Part shown: positions 3,642-39,421 of the stretch, piece by piece | Layout: the number at the start of each line of letters is the position of its first letter | How positions within the stretch are numbered: the stretch's first letter is position 1 | From: Aminipila sp. | GTDB taxonomy: Bacteria > Bacillota > Clostridia > Peptostreptococcales > Anaerovoracaceae | Length of the DNA: 64,000 bases | Reading direction: 5' to 3' | Assembly: GCA_047974845.1 (NCBI GenBank) | Contig: JBKECQ010000041.1 | Location: forward strand, 37,314-101,313 | Program-made: the position numbers and the translations under genes | The notes under the pieces: model-generated | The model's database searches: none | What the model was told of the DNA's origin: nothing | Seen by the model: the letters and a program-made list of their open reading frames with translations, nothing else

Positions 3642-5282
3642 ATGAATAAAATTAATCCGATAATAATAGAATTATTAAAAAAAAGAGGGATTTCAGGTGA
3701 TGCTGAAATACTTGAATTTTTGTCGGACAAACCACAAAAAACATATGATCCATTCCTGCTTCACGATTTAGAAGCGGGGGTGGATTTAATACTGTCCGCA
3801 ATAAATAATAAGAAAAAAATATGTATATATGGAGATTATGATGCAGACGGAGTAACTTCAGTTAGTATTCTTATGCAATTCTTTTCAAATTTTGATGCAG
3901 ATATTACTTATTATATACCTTCCAGATTTGATGAGGGCTATGGCTTGAACAAGGGCGCCATAGACTATATTAAAAACATTGGAACAGATTTAATAATAAC
4001 GGTTGACTGTGGTAGCGTGTCTTGTGACGAGGTAGAGCACGCAAAGGAAATTGGATTAGAAATAATAGTTACAGACCATCACAGCATCGCAGATAATGCT
4101 GCTGATTGTATATTAATCAATCCCAAGCACCCAAACTGTAAATACCCGTTTAAATATTTGGCAGGTTGTGGTGTGGCATTTAAACTTGCACAAGGAATAC
4201 AGCGAAAATCAGGTATTTCCAAAAGGGCTGTAAATGAACTTTTAGATTTAGTTGCAATTGGAACAATTGGCGATATAGTTCCATTGGTTGATGAAAACAG
4301 AACTTTAGTTAAATATGGCATGAATGTAATAAAAGATGGTCATAGACTAGGGCTGTCTAAACTTATCAATGGCATTTCATTAAACTCAAAATTAATAAAG
4401 TCAGATAATGTAGCATTTGGCATTGTCCCTCATTTAAATGCGGCGGGAAGAATGAAAGCTGCTAAAATAGGTGTAGATCTGATGAATTGCAAAGAAATAA
4501 ATCAGATTGATGTGATAGTTGAAGATTTAATACATAATAATAGGAATAGAAAGAGGGTACAAGAAGATACCTTCGCTGAGTGTGATAGGATTATCCAGAC
4601 ACTGCATAAGGATGACTTGTTTTATATAGTTAATTGTGAAGAAGCACATGAAGGCATTGCAGGTATTGTTGCAGGGAAATTGAAGGATAAATATCACCGA
4701 CCTACCATTATACTTACCCCAACGGGAGAAGGATTTTTAAAAGGGACAGGAAGAAGTATCAGCAAAATAAATCTTTATAATGTATTAAAGGAGCAGGAAG
4801 ATTTATTTGAAAGATTTGGCGGACATTCGGGAGCCTGCGGTCTTTTAATGCAGGAAGAAAAGTTACCAATATTTAGGTCTGCAATTGCAGATAGTATGAA
4901 AATGCTTTTGGAAAGTGACCCAAGTGCATTTGATGACGATAAAGAGGCTGATATTGTATTGGAAGGTAAAGAAATAACTTTTGACTTTATAAGGGATATA
5001 GAAAAACTTGCTCCATTTGGCAGTTGCAATGAAAGACCCTATATTGCATTAGAGGAAGTAGTAATTGCCAAAGTTCAATACATGGGGTCAGAAGGAAAGC
5101 ATGCTAAATTTTCGGCATGTTGTCGTGACGGCAGTGTAATACAATCTGTATTTTTTAATCGAGCAGAGGAATTTAAAGACAAGCTTTTTTCTAATTCCCC
5201 ATTAAGGCTTTTGGGAAGCCCGGAAATTTCGGAATGGAATGGAAATAAAAGAATACAGTTTTTAGTAAGTGATATTAAATAA
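3642..5282 (+). CDS. recJ: Single-stranded-DNA-specific exonuclease RecJ (DHH/DHHA1 family)
   Basis: GDYDADGVTS, TVDCG, VTDHH and GGHSGACG motifs appear in canonical RecJ order, and the N-terminus LLKKRGI...FL is RecJ-like. Confidence 0.85.
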   Translation: MNKINPIIIELLKKRGISGDAEILEFLSDKPQKTYDPFLLHDLEAGVDLILSAINNKKKICIYGDYDADGVTSVSILMQFFSNFDADITYYIPSRFDEGYGLNKGAIDYIKNIGTDLIITVDCGSVSCDEVEHAKEIGLEIIVTDHHSIADNAADCILINPKHPNCKYPFKYLAGCGVAFKLAQGIQRKSGISKRAVNELLDLVAIGTIGDIVPLVDENRTLVKYGMNVIKDGHRLGLSKLINGISLNSKLIKSDNVAFGIVPHLNAAGRMKAAKIGVDLMNCKEINQIDVIVEDLIHNNRNRKRVQEDTFAECDRIIQTLHKDDLFYIVNCEEAHEGIAGIVAGKLKDKYHRPTIILTPTGEGFLKGTGRSISKINLYNVLKEQEDLFERFGGHSGACGLLMQEEKLPIFRSAIADSMKMLLESDPSAFDDDKEADIVLEGKEITFDFIRDIEKLAPFGSCNERPYIALEEVVIAKVQYMGSEGKHAKFSACCRDGSVIQSVFFNRAEEFKDKLFSNSPLRLLGSPEISEWNGNKRIQFLVSDIK

Positions 5283-34322: not shown

Positions 34323-34856
34323 ATGAAAGTAAGTGAAGAAAATTTTGTAGTGCAAATGCAAGCTCATAATGAGGAAGCACTTCAGTATATAATAAAGAAC
34401 TATGGTTGGGTTATAAAAACCGTGGTAACGAAGCATCTAAGACGATTGCCTTGGTATCAAGAAGAATGTATGAATGATGTTCTACTGGCAGCATGGAACA
34501 ATGTGGATAGATTTGATCAAAGAGCAGGCTCTTTTAAAAACTGGTTGGCAGGAGTGGCAAAATATACAGCCCTTAATTATGTAAGAAAATATAAGCATGA
34601 AATAGAACAAGAGGAATTAAAAGAGAACTCCATGGAAGAGACTGAATACCAAAAATCTCAGATGGAAATGAAAGAAGCCTTTGAGGAACTAATTAGTTGT
34701 TTAAATGAAAGAGACAGGGAATTATTTATTCGATTATATTATAAGGATGAGTCTATGGAAAAAATAAGTGAGATAACAGGAGTAGAAAAATCTGTATTAT
34801 ACAATAGAATATCTCGAGCAAAAAAGACTATTAGGCATAGTTATAACAAGGGTTAA
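34323..34856 (+). CDS. ECF-type sigma-70 family RNA polymerase sigma factor
   Basis: Region 2 (DVLLAAWNNVDRFD...SFKNWLAGVAKYTALNYVRK) and region 4 HTH (SMEKISEITGVEKSVLYNRISRAKKTI). Confidence 0.88.
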   Translation: MKVSEENFVVQMQAHNEEALQYIIKNYGWVIKTVVTKHLRRLPWYQEECMNDVLLAAWNNVDRFDQRAGSFKNWLAGVAKYTALNYVRKYKHEIEQEELKENSMEETEYQKSQMEMKEAFEELISCLNERDRELFIRLYYKDESMEKISEITGVEKSVLYNRISRAKKTIRHSYNKG

Positions 34857-34869
34857 AGGAGCGAAAAGT

Positions 34870-35853
34870 ATGGAAAAAAATATTTACGATTTATTGAATA
34901 ATGCTTATGTGGATTTAGACGATTACAATAAAGAACAGATAACCGATTTAGAAGGTGCAAAAATGATGAAATTTATGAAAGAAAAAATGGGACAAAATAA
35001 TAATACAAGGAAACAGAAAAGAACAAAAACGGCAGTTGCGGCAAGTATTGCGGTATTAATGCTTGTTGGTGGCACTGTTGGCGGAGTTTCTGTTATGGCA
35101 ACAGAGAATCCCACAGCATATAAAATTGCAAATTTTTTAGGAATAGAGAAGAATTTGGACTCATATGAATCCATGATTAATCAATCTGTTACTAAGGATG
35201 GAGTTACATTATCATTAAAAGGTGTTATTATTAATGGTGATGAGCTGGTAGCATCAGTGGTAACAAGTAGTCCAGAGCTAAGCAGTGACAACTTTGAAGC
35301 TCCGGGTGCAGTTGTTTTTATTAATGGAGAAAGAATAAATGGTGGTTCCATGATGCAATTTAAGGTTTTAGATGAGCATACAGGGCATTCAATAATCAGA
35401 GTTCCACTATTAAAGCAATATGAAGGAATTTTGGATGTGAAATTACAGTTATCTACGCCTTTAAAGGAGATGGAACGTTCACCACACTGGGAATTTGAAT
35501 TCCGCACCAGTGGAGATGAGTTAAAAGAAGATACATTTATTCAAGATATTAATGAGACAGTAAGCCTTCCGGATGGAAAAACAATTAAACTAAATAATTT
35601 TCAGTTGAACCGTTTATCTTGTACAATTGATTTTAGTGCAGAAAATGGTTTGGGTGGAAATCAGGTAGAAATATATTCTGTGGATGAAAAGGGCAATGAA
35701 ATAAAATTTGAACTTGATGTTATGACTTCTACAAAGGGTAAACTTGTATTACCAATTGAGTATCATGAAACGGTAGAACAGGCAAAAACACTCAATTGCA
35801 CGGTAGTGCTTAATGGGGAAAAACTGGGTCAGACTTTTATGATTCAAAAATAA
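34870..35853 (+). CDS. Membrane anti-sigma factor-like protein (DUF4179-type)
   Basis: It lies 13 nt downstream of the sigma gene. It has a short cytoplasmic N-terminus, a single TM (AVAASIAVLMLVGGTVGGV) and a beta-rich extracytoplasmic domain. Confidence 0.7.
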   Translation: MEKNIYDLLNNAYVDLDDYNKEQITDLEGAKMMKFMKEKMGQNNNTRKQKRTKTAVAASIAVLMLVGGTVGGVSVMATENPTAYKIANFLGIEKNLDSYESMINQSVTKDGVTLSLKGVIINGDELVASVVTSSPELSSDNFEAPGAVVFINGERINGGSMMQFKVLDEHTGHSIIRVPLLKQYEGILDVKLQLSTPLKEMERSPHWEFEFRTSGDELKEDTFIQDINETVSLPDGKTIKLNNFQLNRLSCTIDFSAENGLGGNQVEIYSVDEKGNEIKFELDVMTSTKGKLVLPIEYHETVEQAKTLNCTVVLNGEKLGQTFMIQK

Positions 35854-35879
35854 TAACTTTACCTTTAATTAAAAAAATA

Positions 35880-35908
35880 TTGATAAATCAATAATTATGT
35901 GATACAAT
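35880..35908 (+). promoter_or_regulatory. Strong sigma-A-type promoter (TTGATA-17 nt-TGaTACAAT) of the spe leader
   Basis: -35 at 35880-35885, a 17-nt spacer containing an extended -10 TG at 35900-35901, and -10 TACAAT at 35903-35908. Confidence 0.7.
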
Positions 35909-35914
35909 TCAGTT

Positions 35915-36210
35915 CAAGTTTAACATAACTTACTGACCATCTTATTAAGATTGAGGCCATACGGACAGCCGGGTCAACCGCCGATTGCAACTCAGAAGAA
36001 CTATTGATTGAGTTAATGTATTAATTTTATAAGTTGGTTGCTTTATAACCGAGAGTGCTTTGCACAAAACTTGTGAAACGGTCAATAAGAGTAGTAAAAG
36101 TAGGTTGTTTACTGTATAGACTCTACAAACTGGAGCTAATACTAACATATAATGATAAATGTTTTTATTAAAACCCCAAGTTTTTTGCATTGCAAAACTT
36201 GGGGTTTTTT
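35915..36210 (+). ncRNA. Unclassified structured leader / candidate riboswitch-attenuator upstream of speA-speE-speB
   Basis: About 300 nt lie between the promoter and an intrinsic terminator that ends 82 nt before the speA ATG. An internal copy of the terminator 3' arm (36059-36074) could form an antiterminator. No T-box sequence is present. Confidence 0.5.
36170..36210 (+). terminator. Intrinsic terminator inside the spe leader
   Basis: CCCCAAGTTTT (36174-36184) pairs with AAAACTTGGGG (36194-36204), followed by TTTTTT. Confidence 0.85.
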
Positions 36211-36292
36211 ATCGTATAGACTAATTTAGTAAAGAAATATTATGAAGAGCATATATGAAGCATCAGAATTTTTATTCGAGGAGAGATGAAAA

Positions 36293-37732
36293 ATGAATAA
36301 AGCTCCTATTTATGAAGCTTTGATGGAGCACAGAAAAAAGCGTATAGTCCCCTTTGATGTCCCCGGGCATAAAGGAGGTAGGGGAACCCCTTTACTTACA
36401 GAATTTTTAGGACAGGATTGTTTAAAAACCGATGTTAACTCAATGAAGCCATTAGATAATCTCTGTCATCCTATTTCGGTTATTTCAGAAGCAGAGGATT
36501 TAGCTGCACGAGCTTTTGGTGCAAAAAAAGCATTTTTAATGGTAGGAGGAACCACTTCGGCTGTTCAATCTATGATTATGTCATGCTGTAAAACCGGAGA
36601 AAAAGTTATCATGCCAAGAAATGTACACAGAAGTGCTATTAATGCTTTAGTGGTATGTGGTGCAATCCCTGTTTACGTTAATCCCGGTATTGATAAAAAA
36701 CTTGGAATACCACTGGGTATGTCCCTTGGTGAATTGGAAAACGCCATAAGGAATAATCCGGACGCTAAGGCAGTATTGGTAAACAATCCAACGTATTATG
36801 GGGTGTGTTCAGATCTAAGAGAAATTGTACGTATTGCACATGAAAATGGGATGTTGGTTCTTGCGGACGAAGCACATGGAACACATTTTTATTTTGGAGA
36901 AAACCTTCCCATTTCTGCAATGGCGGCAGGTGCAGATATGGCAGCTGTTAGTATGCATAAAACGGGGGGCTCTCTTACACAAAGCTCATTTTTATTGTGT
37001 AACGATACTGTTAATGATTCTTATGTAAGGCAAATTATTAATCTGACGCAAACAACAAGTGGGTCATATTTACTTTTAGCCTCCCTTGATATTGCTAGGA
37101 TGAATTTGGAGGACAACGGAAAGCAAATTTTTGCTAAAACTCTTGGACTTGCTAAATATGCAAGAGAAGAAATTAACAAAATTGGCGGATACTATGCTTT
37201 TGGAAGCGAATTAAAAAACGGAGATAATATTTATGATTTCGATACAACAAAGCTCTCTGTTCATACGTTGGATATAGGCCTTGCGGGAATTGAAGTTTAT
37301 GACTTACTCAGGGATGAATATGATATTCAAATCGAGTTGGGAGATTTGGCGAATTTTTTGGCTATAATTTCAGCAGGAGACAGAGCTTTTGAGATAGAAA
37401 GGCTTATATCAGCACTGGTTGAGATAAAACGAAGGTATTCAAAAAATAAAACGGGTATGTTAGATCACGAATATATTAATCCTGAAATCGTTATGCCACC
37501 TCAAAAAGCATTTTTCCACAAAAAAAAGCAGGTGGATTTAGAGGATAGTATTGGCAAGATTTGCGGCGAATTTGTAATGTGTTATCCGCCCGGAATTCCG
37601 ATTTTAGCTCCGGGAGAACTAATAACCAAGGAAATTGCAAATTATATTAAATACGCAAAAGAAAAAGGCTGTTCATTAACGGGAACAGAAGATTTATCAA
37701 TTGAAAAAATAAACATATTGGAGGAAGAATAA
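36293..37732 (+). CDS. speA: Arginine (Orn/Lys/Arg family) decarboxylase, Bacillus SpeA type
   Basis: The family fold and PLP-lysine motif S-M-H-K-T (AAVSMHKTGGSLTQSS) are present. It is followed by speE and speB. Confidence 0.85.
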   Translation: MNKAPIYEALMEHRKKRIVPFDVPGHKGGRGTPLLTEFLGQDCLKTDVNSMKPLDNLCHPISVISEAEDLAARAFGAKKAFLMVGGTTSAVQSMIMSCCKTGEKVIMPRNVHRSAINALVVCGAIPVYVNPGIDKKLGIPLGMSLGELENAIRNNPDAKAVLVNNPTYYGVCSDLREIVRIAHENGMLVLADEAHGTHFYFGENLPISAMAAGADMAAVSMHKTGGSLTQSSFLLCNDTVNDSYVRQIINLTQTTSGSYLLLASLDIARMNLEDNGKQIFAKTLGLAKYAREEINKIGGYYAFGSELKNGDNIYDFDTTKLSVHTLDIGLAGIEVYDLLRDEYDIQIELGDLANFLAIISAGDRAFEIERLISALVEIKRRYSKNKTGMLDHEYINPEIVMPPQKAFFHKKKQVDLEDSIGKICGEFVMCYPPGIPILAPGELITKEIANYIKYAKEKGCSLTGTEDLSIEKINILEEE

Positions 37733-38586
37733 TGGAACTTTGGTATACGGAAGAACACTCAGCAAACACTAGATTCTCAATAAAGGTTGAAAAACAAATT
37801 TATAGTTCTCAAAGTCAGTTTCAAAGAATTGATGTTTTTGAATCAGAGGAATTTGGTCGCTTTTTTACACTGGACGGTCTTATGATGGTTACGGAAAAAG
37901 ATGAATTTATTTATCACGATATGATTGTACACGTACCTATGGCAACGAACCCAAACATTAAAAAAGTGTTAGTTATAGGAGCCGGAGATGGTGGTACCGT
38001 TCGTGAATTGACAAGGTATTCAAATATTGAAAGTATTCACATGGTAGAAATAGATAAAATGGTAGTGGATGTGTGCCTTGAGTATTTACCACAGACATCA
38101 GAAAAACTAAACGACCCAAGGGTTCAGCTATATTTTGAAGATGGATTGAAATTTGTTAGAAACAAGCAAAATGAATATGACCTTATCATTGTTGATTCTA
38201 CCGATCCATTTGGACCGGGAGAGGGCTTATTTACAAAGGAATTTTATGGAAATTGCTATAATGCCCTTAATGAAAATGGTATATTAGTAAACCAGCATGA
38301 AACTCCTTATTATGCAGAGTACGCAAAATCAATGCAACGTGCACATAAGAGAATTAAAGAATTTTTCCCTGTATGTAAAGTATATCAGGCTCATATTCCT
38401 ACATATCCATCAGGACATTGGCTATTTGGATTTGCATCTAAAAATTATGATCCAATTGTTGACCTTAAGGCTAAAGAGTGGAATGATTTAAAACTTAAGA
38501 CAAAGTACTATAATACTGATTTACATATTGGATGTTTTGCAATTCCAAACTATGTTAAAGAATTGTTGGAGCAAAGCAATGAATAG
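37732..38586 (+). CDS. speE: Spermidine synthase
   Basis: WYTE..., QRIDVFES..FG..F.LDG, VLVIGAGDGGTVRE and DSTDPFGP motifs. Its start overlaps the speA stop. Confidence 0.93.
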   Translation: MELWYTEEHSANTRFSIKVEKQIYSSQSQFQRIDVFESEEFGRFFTLDGLMMVTEKDEFIYHDMIVHVPMATNPNIKKVLVIGAGDGGTVRELTRYSNIESIHMVEIDKMVVDVCLEYLPQTSEKLNDPRVQLYFEDGLKFVRNKQNEYDLIIVDSTDPFGPGEGLFTKEFYGNCYNALNENGILVNQHETPYYAEYAKSMQRAHKRIKEFFPVCKVYQAHIPTYPSGHWLFGFASKNYDPIVDLKAKEWNDLKLKTKYYNTDLHIGCFAIPNYVKELLEQSNE

Positions 38587-39421
38587 AAATATACAAACCT
38601 TTTTAGGTTGTGAAAATGAATATGAAGACAGTAGCATCGTAGTTTTTGGTGCACCCTTTGACGGGACAACAAGCTATAGACCGGGGACAAGGTTTGCTTC
38701 TGCGGAAATGAGAAAAGAGAGTTTTGGTATAGAAACATATAGTCCTTACCAAGACAGAGACTTAGAGGATATAGAAATATTTGACGGGGGCGATTTGGAA
38801 ATTGGTTTTGGCAATACGGAAAAAGCGCTAAAAACCATAGAAGACTTCACTGCTAAGGTCATTAAAGATGATAAGATTCCGCTTATGATAGGCGGGGAGC
38901 ATTTGGTGACACTTGGAGCAGTAAGGGCAGTAGCAGAAAAATATCCGGATTTGCATATTATACATTTTGATGCACATGCAGATTTAAGAGAAGAGTATAT
39001 GGAAGAAAAACTTTCCCATGCTACTGTTTTGAGAAGGGTTTATGAAATTGTCGGTGAAGGTAAAATCTTTCAATTTGGAATACGTTCCGGAGAGAAGAAA
39101 GAGTTTGAATTTGCAAAAAAACATACTGCCATGTGTAAGTTTAATTTTAATGGGCTAAGTGACGTAGTGAATTCCCTCAAAAACAAGCCCGTATATTTCA
39201 CCTTAGATTTGGATGTATTGGACAGTTCTGTTTTCCCCGGAACAGGTACACCGGAAGCAGGAGGCGTGACATTTAAAGAACTCATGGAGGCATTATTGAT
39301 GCTACAAGATTTAAATATTGTAGGCTGTGATATCAATGAGCTGTCACCAATGCTGGATACAAGTGGGGCATCAACAGCAGTGGCCTGTAAAGTTTTAAGA
39401 GAGGTATTGTTGTTACTTTAA
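38579..39421 (+). CDS. speB: Agmatinase (ureohydrolase family)
   Basis: HFDAHADLR, GGEH and DLDVLD metal-binding motifs. The ATG at 38579 overlaps the speE stop by 8 nt; the listed start at 38528 lies inside speE. Confidence 0.9.
   Translation: MNRNIQTFLGCENEYEDSSIVVFGAPFDGTTSYRPGTRFASAEMRKESFGIETYSPYQDRDLEDIEIFDGGDLEIGFGNTEKALKTIEDFTAKVIKDDKIPLMIGGEHLVTLGAVRAVAEKYPDLHIIHFDAHADLREEYMEEKLSHATVLRRVYEIVGEGKIFQFGIRSGEKKEFEFAKKHTAMCKFNFNGLSDVVNSLKNKPVYFTLDLDVLDSSVFPGTGTPEAGGVTFKELMEALLMLQDLNIVGCDINELSPMLDTSGASTAVACKVLREVLLLL

Follow-up and report, generated by a model that had tools for sequence, protein, structure and literature searches.

How is polyamine synthesis controlled in Aminipila sp., where an operon of the order decarboxylase-speE-speB is preceded by a long stretch of intergenic DNA? 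The operon lies in the window, a 64,000-nucleotide (nt) stretch of contig JBKECQ010000041.1. The gap in front of it spans 35854-36292 (439 nt; all coordinates are window positions on the plus strand unless stated otherwise), from the end of a DUF4179 open reading frame (ORF) at 35853 to the ATG of the first operon gene at 36293. A preliminary description, made from the sequence alone, had read this gap as the leader of a novel riboswitch or attenuator class with a promoter, a terminator and an antiterminator, and had named in advance a significant match to a known Rfam family as the result that speaks against novelty. The sequence features it listed are all present, with coordinates off by 1 nt at most. 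Scanning the whole window against Rfam at gathering threshold returned a single match, to RF02440 (SpF59 sRNA / ldcC RNA), at 35934-35984 on the plus strand. It covers model positions 1-54 of 54 at 63.4 bits, well over the gathering score of 37.2, with E = 4.7e-9 for the whole window. Because the match exceeds the gathering score, the claim of a novel class is refuted. The leader is a member of the already catalogued, orphan ldcC-motif family, and the decarboxylase-speE-speB operon is controlled by a leader-terminator element of a known family.

The description of the ldcC motif, a hairpin with a bulge and a possible invariant pseudoknot, goes back to Weinberg et al. 2017 (PMC5737381). According to that study it is widespread in Firmicutes and is found in the 5' untranslated regions (UTRs) of potA and of arginine, ornithine or S-adenosylmethionine (SAM) decarboxylase genes; a role in polyamine homeostasis was suggested and no ligand was given. 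Hosts of the motif are Firmicutes/Bacillota (or Spirochaetes), and all loci related to the window leader, among those listed, are Bacillota. The part covered by RF02440 comprises helices P1 and P2, an invariant 20-nt bulge and a tail ending in GCCGA. The P1/P2 hairpin with its large conserved 3' bulge, AAGGCCAUACGGACAGCCG, is present in the window, where the bulge differs only by an A-to-G change at the second position (GAGGCC...), and the location of the element in the 5' UTR of an OKR_DC_1-Spermine_synth-Arginase operon fits the known placement. The nucleotides of the pseudoknot proposed by Weinberg et al. are invariant across the family, hence there is no covariation signal either way. Another candidate pseudoknot, between GCCG of the tail and CGG(U) in the P6/P4 junction, was rejected, as CAA-type variants in L009, L013 and L020 are uncompensated. 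The preliminary description had seen no T-box, L-box, SAM or guanidine class here, and it judged correctly: the T-box, SAM, lysine (L-box) and guanidine models gave no match at gathering score in the window, nor at E <= 10 in 35800-36400. Its statement that no polyamine riboswitch class is established does not hold, since a spermidine riboswitch, a rare variant of SAM-I with 13 representatives, was validated by Salvail et al. 2023 (PMC10853860).

Does the 54-nt model describe the whole element? The conserved domain is about 193-199 nt long with ten helices, approximately four times the Rfam model. Related loci were collected by scanning one genome per species for an exact 21-nt invariant core, which gave at least 120 Bacillota loci; the family comparison below covers about 100. 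The listed loci belong to Bacilli, Clostridia and Negativicutes and include Paenibacillus, Neobacillus, Priestia, Brevibacillus, Oscillospiraceae, Lachnospiraceae and Acidaminococcus. Positions 98-271 of the window's gap (35951-36124) are approximately 75-83% identical to most of the Bacilli and Clostridia loci listed, and near-invariant blocks extend to ...UAUAGACUCU. RNAalifold run on a raw MAFFT alignment of 115 leaders recovered 7 invariant pairs only, the variable hairpins being misaligned, and was superseded by ten helices derived by hand. From these a covariance model, R1, with 199 positions and 55 pairs was made and used for realignment. R1 matches the window at 35934-36126 over model positions 1-199 with 159 bits, delimiting a structured, aptamer-like domain at full length and the only copy in the window. 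All 99 sources searched match R1 end to end, with 59-222 bits, and about half of them lie outside the seed. Standard pairs fill 95.7% of the alignment cells, compared with 31-44% when the partners are slid, and 32 pairs show changes on both sides versus 16.1 +/- 1.7 in shuffles (0 of 500). The comparison of related upstream regions that the preliminary description had proposed thus finds both conservation and covariation over a 199-position domain. Changes on both sides are widespread in P2, P3, P8 and the outer pair of P1 and less frequent in P5 and P7. For P9, each pair has them in no more than one or two sequences; P4 does not vary, and P6 mainly shows changes on one side (GU/AU/GC). On a gap-stripped alignment RNAalifold independently yields P2, P3 and P5-P9. 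An alternative partner for P1, a downstream GGUC suggested by RNAalifold, was discarded, because covariation ties the outer pair to the Rfam partner (UA 44, GC 36, CG 6).

In 12 typical members Rfam covers only the first 54 nt or so, and the 3' part of the domain, about 140 nt, has no Rfam match in these members. A second sampling that used a pattern in the 3' domain instead of the core added three metagenomic members. Two of them, L125 (5704-5916) and L126 (1175-1352), have an intact 3' domain; the 5' ldcC hairpin and bulge are divergent in L125 and mostly missing in L126. Against the extended model they score 150 and 124 bits, yet RF02440 leaves them undetected at E <= 0.01, so RF02440 probably undercounts the family. 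No reading frame is conserved across the family on either strand of the domain, which is therefore non-coding. A leader peptide or small ORF was considered and rejected: the gap ORFs of at least 20 aa lack plausible starts, and none is in a conserved frame. The 81-aa ATG ORF that runs antisense across the leader (35945-36190, minus strand) is not conserved elsewhere and is almost certainly spurious.

In the window's copy, the RF02440 alignment places P1 (UGACC 35934-35938 with GGUCA 35972-35976), whose outer pair co-varies in the family, and the P2 hairpin (35939-35951), which co-varies throughout; the invariant bulge follows at 35952-35971. P3 (about 35987-36001) is degenerate. P4 pairs UAUUGA (36002-36007) with UCAAUA (36082-36087) and P5 (36008-36024) is weakened. 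Covariation counts, model alignment and RNAalifold agree on a three-way junction at 36025-36078, formed by P6 (UUUUAUAAG 36025-36033 with CUUGUGAAA 36070-36078), P7 (GGUU 36036-36039 with AACC 36047-36050) and P8 (GUGC 36055-36058 with GCAC 36062-36065). P9 consists of AGAGU 36088-36092 with ACUCU 36120-36124 and AGUAA 36093-36097 with UUACU 36109-36113, and has a bulge, GUAUAG, at 36114-36119. Of the two local hairpins that had been proposed from the sequence, GTGC-ttt-GCAC (36055-36065) is P8, while CACAA-aac-TTGTG (36063-36075) is present in the window and is not a family feature. The same can be said of the repeated GATTGAG (35949 and 36006) and its complement CTCA (35991). The motifs are there; the suggested alternative pairing is not a family feature and was rejected: one copy belongs to the end of P2 and the other to P4/P5, which are unrelated places in the fold, CTCA is part of the degenerate P3, and the duplication is no more than expected by chance. 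A hairpin specific to the window can be drawn between AACUCA (35990-35995) and UGAGUU (36008-36013). In folding models it may take the place of P3; it would then be in competition with the 5' strand of P5, and the 5' strand of P4 would lie inside it.

The domain is followed by a non-conserved linker (36127-36169) and an intrinsic terminator, CCCCAAGTTTT / AAAACTTGGGG plus T6, at 36170-36210 (approximately -17.9 kcal/mol). Its 5' arm is AAAACCCCAAGUUUU (36170-36184), its loop 36185-36193, its 3' arm AAAACUUGGGGUUUU (36194-36208) and its U-run 36205-36210; it ends 82 nt upstream of the ATG, as had been described. A simple hairpin scan overlooked it solely because the loop is 9 nt. An equivalent is found throughout the family: about 105 of 107 loci have a strong intrinsic terminator 150-330 nt past the core, with a long ORF behind it. 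Measured up to where the terminator hairpin starts, the linker spans 24-175 nt in family members, with a median of 93; at 47 nt the window's is short. With AAAA on the 5' side of its stem and U6 on the 3' side, the window's terminator has a bidirectional shape and could also stop transcription of the minus strand; sub-threshold Rfam matches on both strands at this place are generic terminator look-alikes. In Bacilli-type loci, L027, L014, L038, L039 and L045 among them, about 100-140 nt separate the domain from the terminator. This long linker is itself conserved within Bacilli (GATATATTTTGAATATT...AATATTGA..ATATC), and one stretch is complementary to the loop of the 5' hairpin (AATATTCAA with TTGAATATT). 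The preliminary description had also pointed to GTATAGACT on both sides of the terminator. Both copies exist, at 36114-36122 (given there as 36113) and 36214-36222, exactly 100 nt apart, and the pair is not a family feature: the first is the P9 bulge plus 3' strand, and the second occurs in 1 of 95 loci, that of the window only, and was treated as chance.

Can the domain control this terminator? A near copy of the terminator 3' arm, TTGCACAAAACTTG, lies at 36060-36073 (36059-36074 in the preliminary description) and had been proposed as an antiterminator. Comparison with the family supports this proposal. CAAGT or CAGGT occurs in the 5' arm of 47 of 94 distinct terminators, where shuffles give a mean of 2.65 and a maximum of 9, and never in the 3' arm of these. 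This pentamer is the complement of the invariant ACUUG that starts the 3' strand of P6, and neighbouring bases of the arm complement the variable 3' strand of P8 of the same locus, for example GCAGACTTG with CAAGTCTGC in L003 and CATCA(A)CTTG with CAAGTGATG in Bacilli. Duplexes between the domain segment and the terminator arm average -13.22 kcal/mol for cognate and -11.40 kcal/mol for non-cognate combinations (0 of 2000 permutations). The predicted antiterminator pairing is in this way conserved and co-varying across the family, in about 90 loci besides the window. In the window the switching segment is GCACAAAACUUG (36062-36073), which comprises the 3' strand of P8 and the first bases of P6's 3' strand, and its predicted partner is 36177-36188 (CAAGUUUUUUGC; 11 bp, -10.5 kcal/mol). 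For the nascent transcript 35934-36192, which stops before the 3' arm of the terminator, the unconstrained minimum-free-energy fold is the antiterminator at -50.3 kcal/mol, and the fold with P6, P7 and P8 forced has -49.6 kcal/mol. As these energies are nearly equal, the two states appear poised at the decision point. In the full-length transcript, terminator plus aptamer (-64.2 / -65.2 kcal/mol) beats the antiterminator (-60.5 kcal/mol). By these folding models the leader carries an expression platform with mutually exclusive structures.

What would such a switch respond to? The first ORF past the terminator encodes a protein of polyamine synthesis or uptake in 104 of 104 loci examined: an Orn/Lys/Arg decarboxylase (OKR_DC_1) in 35, a SAM decarboxylase (AdoMet_dc) in 28, a protein of the carboxy(nor)spermidine dehydrogenase type (Sacchrp_dh) in 22 and a PotA-type importer ATPase (ABC_tran + TOBE_2) in 19. 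All four groups have spermidine in common, as product or substrate. A spermidine-type triamine would be the most economical effector because two alternative spermidine pathways and a spermidine/putrescine importer share the element, and end-product repression fits because the folded domain hides the antiterminator strand. We favor the reading that the leader is a cis-acting OFF attenuator, probably a riboswitch for spermidine or a closely related polyamine, that provides end-product feedback; we put its probability at roughly 0.55. Transcription would begin at an extended -10 promoter at 35880-35908, and the nascent RNA would fold into the 193-nt multi-helix domain at 35934-36126. With 36062-36073 kept in the 3' strands of P8 and P6, the hairpin at 36170-36210 could form and transcription would terminate before the first gene. 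If the segment paired with 36177-36188, the terminator would be blocked and RNA polymerase would read into the operon. An effector, most likely spermidine or a related triamine to which the RNA binds directly, would stabilize the folded domain and hide 36062-36073, the terminator would form and the operon would be off. Family membership, the extended structure, the terminator and the conserved, co-varying and energetically poised antiterminator are shown by the comparison and the folding models; it is the identity of the effector, its direct binding, the direction of the switch and the start site that we infer.

The same architecture could also be read by a protein or other macromolecule acting in trans, which would bind the conserved single-stranded blocks, control termination as in protein-dependent attenuators and sense polyamine status. 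The very high conservation of the unpaired regions, for example CUUGUGAAACGGUCAAUAAGAGUAGUAAAAGU, suits a protein footprint as well as a ligand pocket, and the searchable literature reports no ligand for the ldcC family since 2017. A conserved neighboring regulator, however, is not seen: no linked regulator gene lies upstream, and among 126 Pfam families in the neighboring genes none occurs in more than 3 of 103 loci, although a regulator could be encoded elsewhere. The element moreover spans Bacilli, Clostridia and Negativicutes, and folds of ten helices with nested junctions typically belong to RNAs that sense a metabolite directly, so we regard a trans-acting factor as unlikely. It is also conceivable that the leader is a riboswitch with a different ligand, such as an intermediate or by-product of the pathway (agmatine, putrescine, decarboxylated SAM, methylthioadenosine or arginine), that it reads a general cation signal, or that it works with ON logic, the effector freeing the antiterminator strand. 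Ligand and direction are deduced only from gene context and from the hidden strand, and the two states are almost equal in energy, making either direction physically possible. Two alternative spermidine pathways plus the PotA importer nevertheless point to a shared end product and not to an intermediate of one branch, and joint control of synthesis and uptake genes normally means product repression. A different ligand or logic is, in our estimate, decidedly unlikely. Rfam files RF02440 under 'Gene; sRNA' with the name 'SpF59 sRNA', and the architecture predicts a stable terminated transcript of about 295 nt (about 35915-36210), which raises the possibility that the leader is mainly a small RNA acting in trans. 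We consider this very improbable: all loci examined have the element immediately 5' of a polyamine gene, in the same orientation and with a terminator after it, and the co-variation of antiterminator with terminator is sensible only in cis. An additional role in trans could exist.

Most members have, in addition to the domain, a conserved 5' flank from about 70 to 8 nt upstream of P1, with a hairpin (TTGGAAAG...CTTTCCAAG or TTGAAAGA...TCTTTTCAA) and (C)AGAGTC. This flank is complementary to the 3' end of the domain plus the linker (the first 50 nt or so past the domain), giving a long closing helix, P0, that co-varies by clade. Mean energies for the short P0 duplex are -10.57 kcal/mol for cognate strands, -9.28 for non-cognate strands and -6.14 for shuffled flanks, and for the long duplex -23.75 (cognate) versus -19.35 (non-cognate), with 0 of 2000 permutations in either case. 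The window's scores, -5.8 (short) and -18.4 (long), are at background, and its promoter sits where the flank would be (35854-35933), the -10 box ending 25 nt before P1. About 18% of the loci lack a good short P0. In Clostridia-type members the 3' strand of P0 overlaps that of P9 (GACUCU), so that the two helices may exclude each other. A 'CAAG box' upstream of P1 was considered as a separate element, since it is enriched (38 of 117 loci versus about 9.6 in shuffles), and is explained by the conserved 5' hairpin/P0 region; the CAAG near the start site in the window is probably incidental. A promoter abutting P1 was likewise dropped as a family rule. The arrangement is heterogeneous, and in most members transcription begins at least 35-50 nt before P1.

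Several points weigh against the riboswitch reading. Sampling by an exact 21-mer core biases the loci towards conservative members, and the covariation counts were taken on an alignment fitted to the structure. P4, P6 and P9 are nearly invariant, pairing there being consistent but not proven. The switching segment is internal to the domain and approximately 100 nt from its partner, which is unusual for riboswitch expression platforms. Polyamines bind RNA non-specifically, and specificity cannot be assumed. Full-text literature searches found no binding or regulation experiment on the ldcC family. As for the window's own copy, P0 and the 5' hairpin are absent, unlike in most members, and non-canonical pairs make up 4 of 6 in P3 and 2 of 5 in P5, so that this copy could be impaired. 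With 159 bits it also scores below the 180-220 bits of typical members. Taken further, the loss of P0 and the 5' hairpin, the broken P3 and P5 and this score would suit a decaying relic, whose terminator is constitutive or insulates the operon from upstream read-through. Yet P1, P2, the invariant bulge, P4, P6-P9 and the switch are intact in the window, whose antiterminator retains its complementarity and is energetically poised, and other members too lack P3 or P5 altogether (L052; L009/L013), as they may lack a good short P0. A relic is therefore a far-fetched explanation to us, and we judge from its sequence that the window's copy is a reduced yet probably functional variant. A metagenome scan with a lineage-specific 20-mer found no close relatives of this reduced variant.

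How does the riboswitch that we propose compare with known systems? The window shares with the ldcC motif of RF02440 the full 54-position model, the invariant 20-nt bulge and the polyamine-operon 5' UTR. The published motif is 54 nt long, whereas in the window and in all 99 sources searched it makes up the 5' quarter of a larger domain, about 199 nt, with a terminator behind it. S-box (SAM-I) and L-box (lysine) OFF riboswitches combine a large multi-helix aptamer with an intrinsic terminator and an aptamer strand that doubles as antiterminator, the same arrangement as here. In these classes the outermost helix supplies the switching strand, its 3' strand, which adjoins the terminator; that of the window, in contrast, is internal (P8/P6), with about 50 nt of conserved domain and a linker of 24-175 nt in the family before the terminator. 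The speFL/speF leader of Gammaproteobacteria also controls a decarboxylase operon of the polyamine pathway, through a translated leader, an ornithine-sensing arrest peptide and ribosome stalling. What it shares with the window is leader-based control of such an operon; the window's leader has no conserved ORF. The spermidine riboswitch of the SAM-I variant type (PMC10853860) occurs in a shared gene context (ldcC, speE, speB) and, like the logic proposed here, is an OFF termination switch with competing terminator and antiterminator and end-product feedback. The RNA itself is unrelated, the window leader having no SAM-family match at E <= 10 in 35800-36400. The SAM-I variant is rare and experimentally validated, whereas the ldcC family is widespread in Bacillota and its ligand is only inferred.

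The sigma-70-type promoter at 35880-35908, TTGATA-17-TGaTACAAT, matches the consensus at 10 of 12 positions and has the TG of an extended -10 element; the preliminary description had placed the start of the leader here. Promoter-like sites are not enriched in this AT-rich region (2 versus 3.5 expected), so the call rests on match quality and position only, and the transcription start is predicted near 35914-35917. The leader folds more strongly than shuffled sequences (z = -2.78). At its other end the sequence shows a Shine-Dalgarno motif, GAGGAGAG (36278-36285), ahead of the first gene's start codon (36293-36295). The operon (36293-39421) encodes an Orn/Lys/Arg decarboxylase that is SpeA-like (OKR_DC_1; 36293-37732), a spermidine synthase (speE; Spermine_synth; 37732-38586) and an agmatinase/arginase-family protein (speB; Arginase; ending at 39421), all on the plus strand, and this gene order recurs on independent contigs. 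Directly upstream on the same strand (34323-35853) lie an extracytoplasmic function (ECF)-type sigma factor (Sigma70_r2/r4_2) and a putative anti-sigma protein (DUF4179/DUF5643). There is no terminator between the stop codon at 35853 and the promoter at 35880, and read-through into the leader is thus possible. In another member of the sample, Peribacillus sp. L078, a c-di-GMP-I riboswitch (RF01051, 75.6 bits; 5106-5195, minus strand) lies approximately 4 kb from the ldcC-family leader and is unrelated to it.

Polyamines are essential and toxic in excess, and little is known of the way Bacillota sense them. Apart from the rare SAM-I variant, no polyamine riboswitch has been validated, and the ldcC motif has been an orphan since 2017. 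New here are a domain of about 199 nt supported by covariation, a conserved antiterminator and an exclusively polyamine-related regulon; these results suggest that the Rfam model RF02440 needs extending. As the 3' domain is present even where the part known to Rfam is divergent or missing, it may be the more universal core. Tentatively, and at somewhat less than even odds, we propose that the 54-nt ldcC motif is the 5' quarter of an aptamer of about 200 nt (up to about 260 nt with the 5' flank and closing helix) with ten or more helices. It would represent a riboswitch class that is widespread in Bacillota, has no relation to the SAM-I variant, responds to spermidine-type polyamines and controls both spermidine pathways and the Pot importer via an internal-strand antiterminator. 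If this is true, any earlier ligand tests restricted to the 54-nt motif would have missed binding. The full-length boundaries, together with the switching segment and the prediction of an OFF switch, make identification of the ligand directly approachable.

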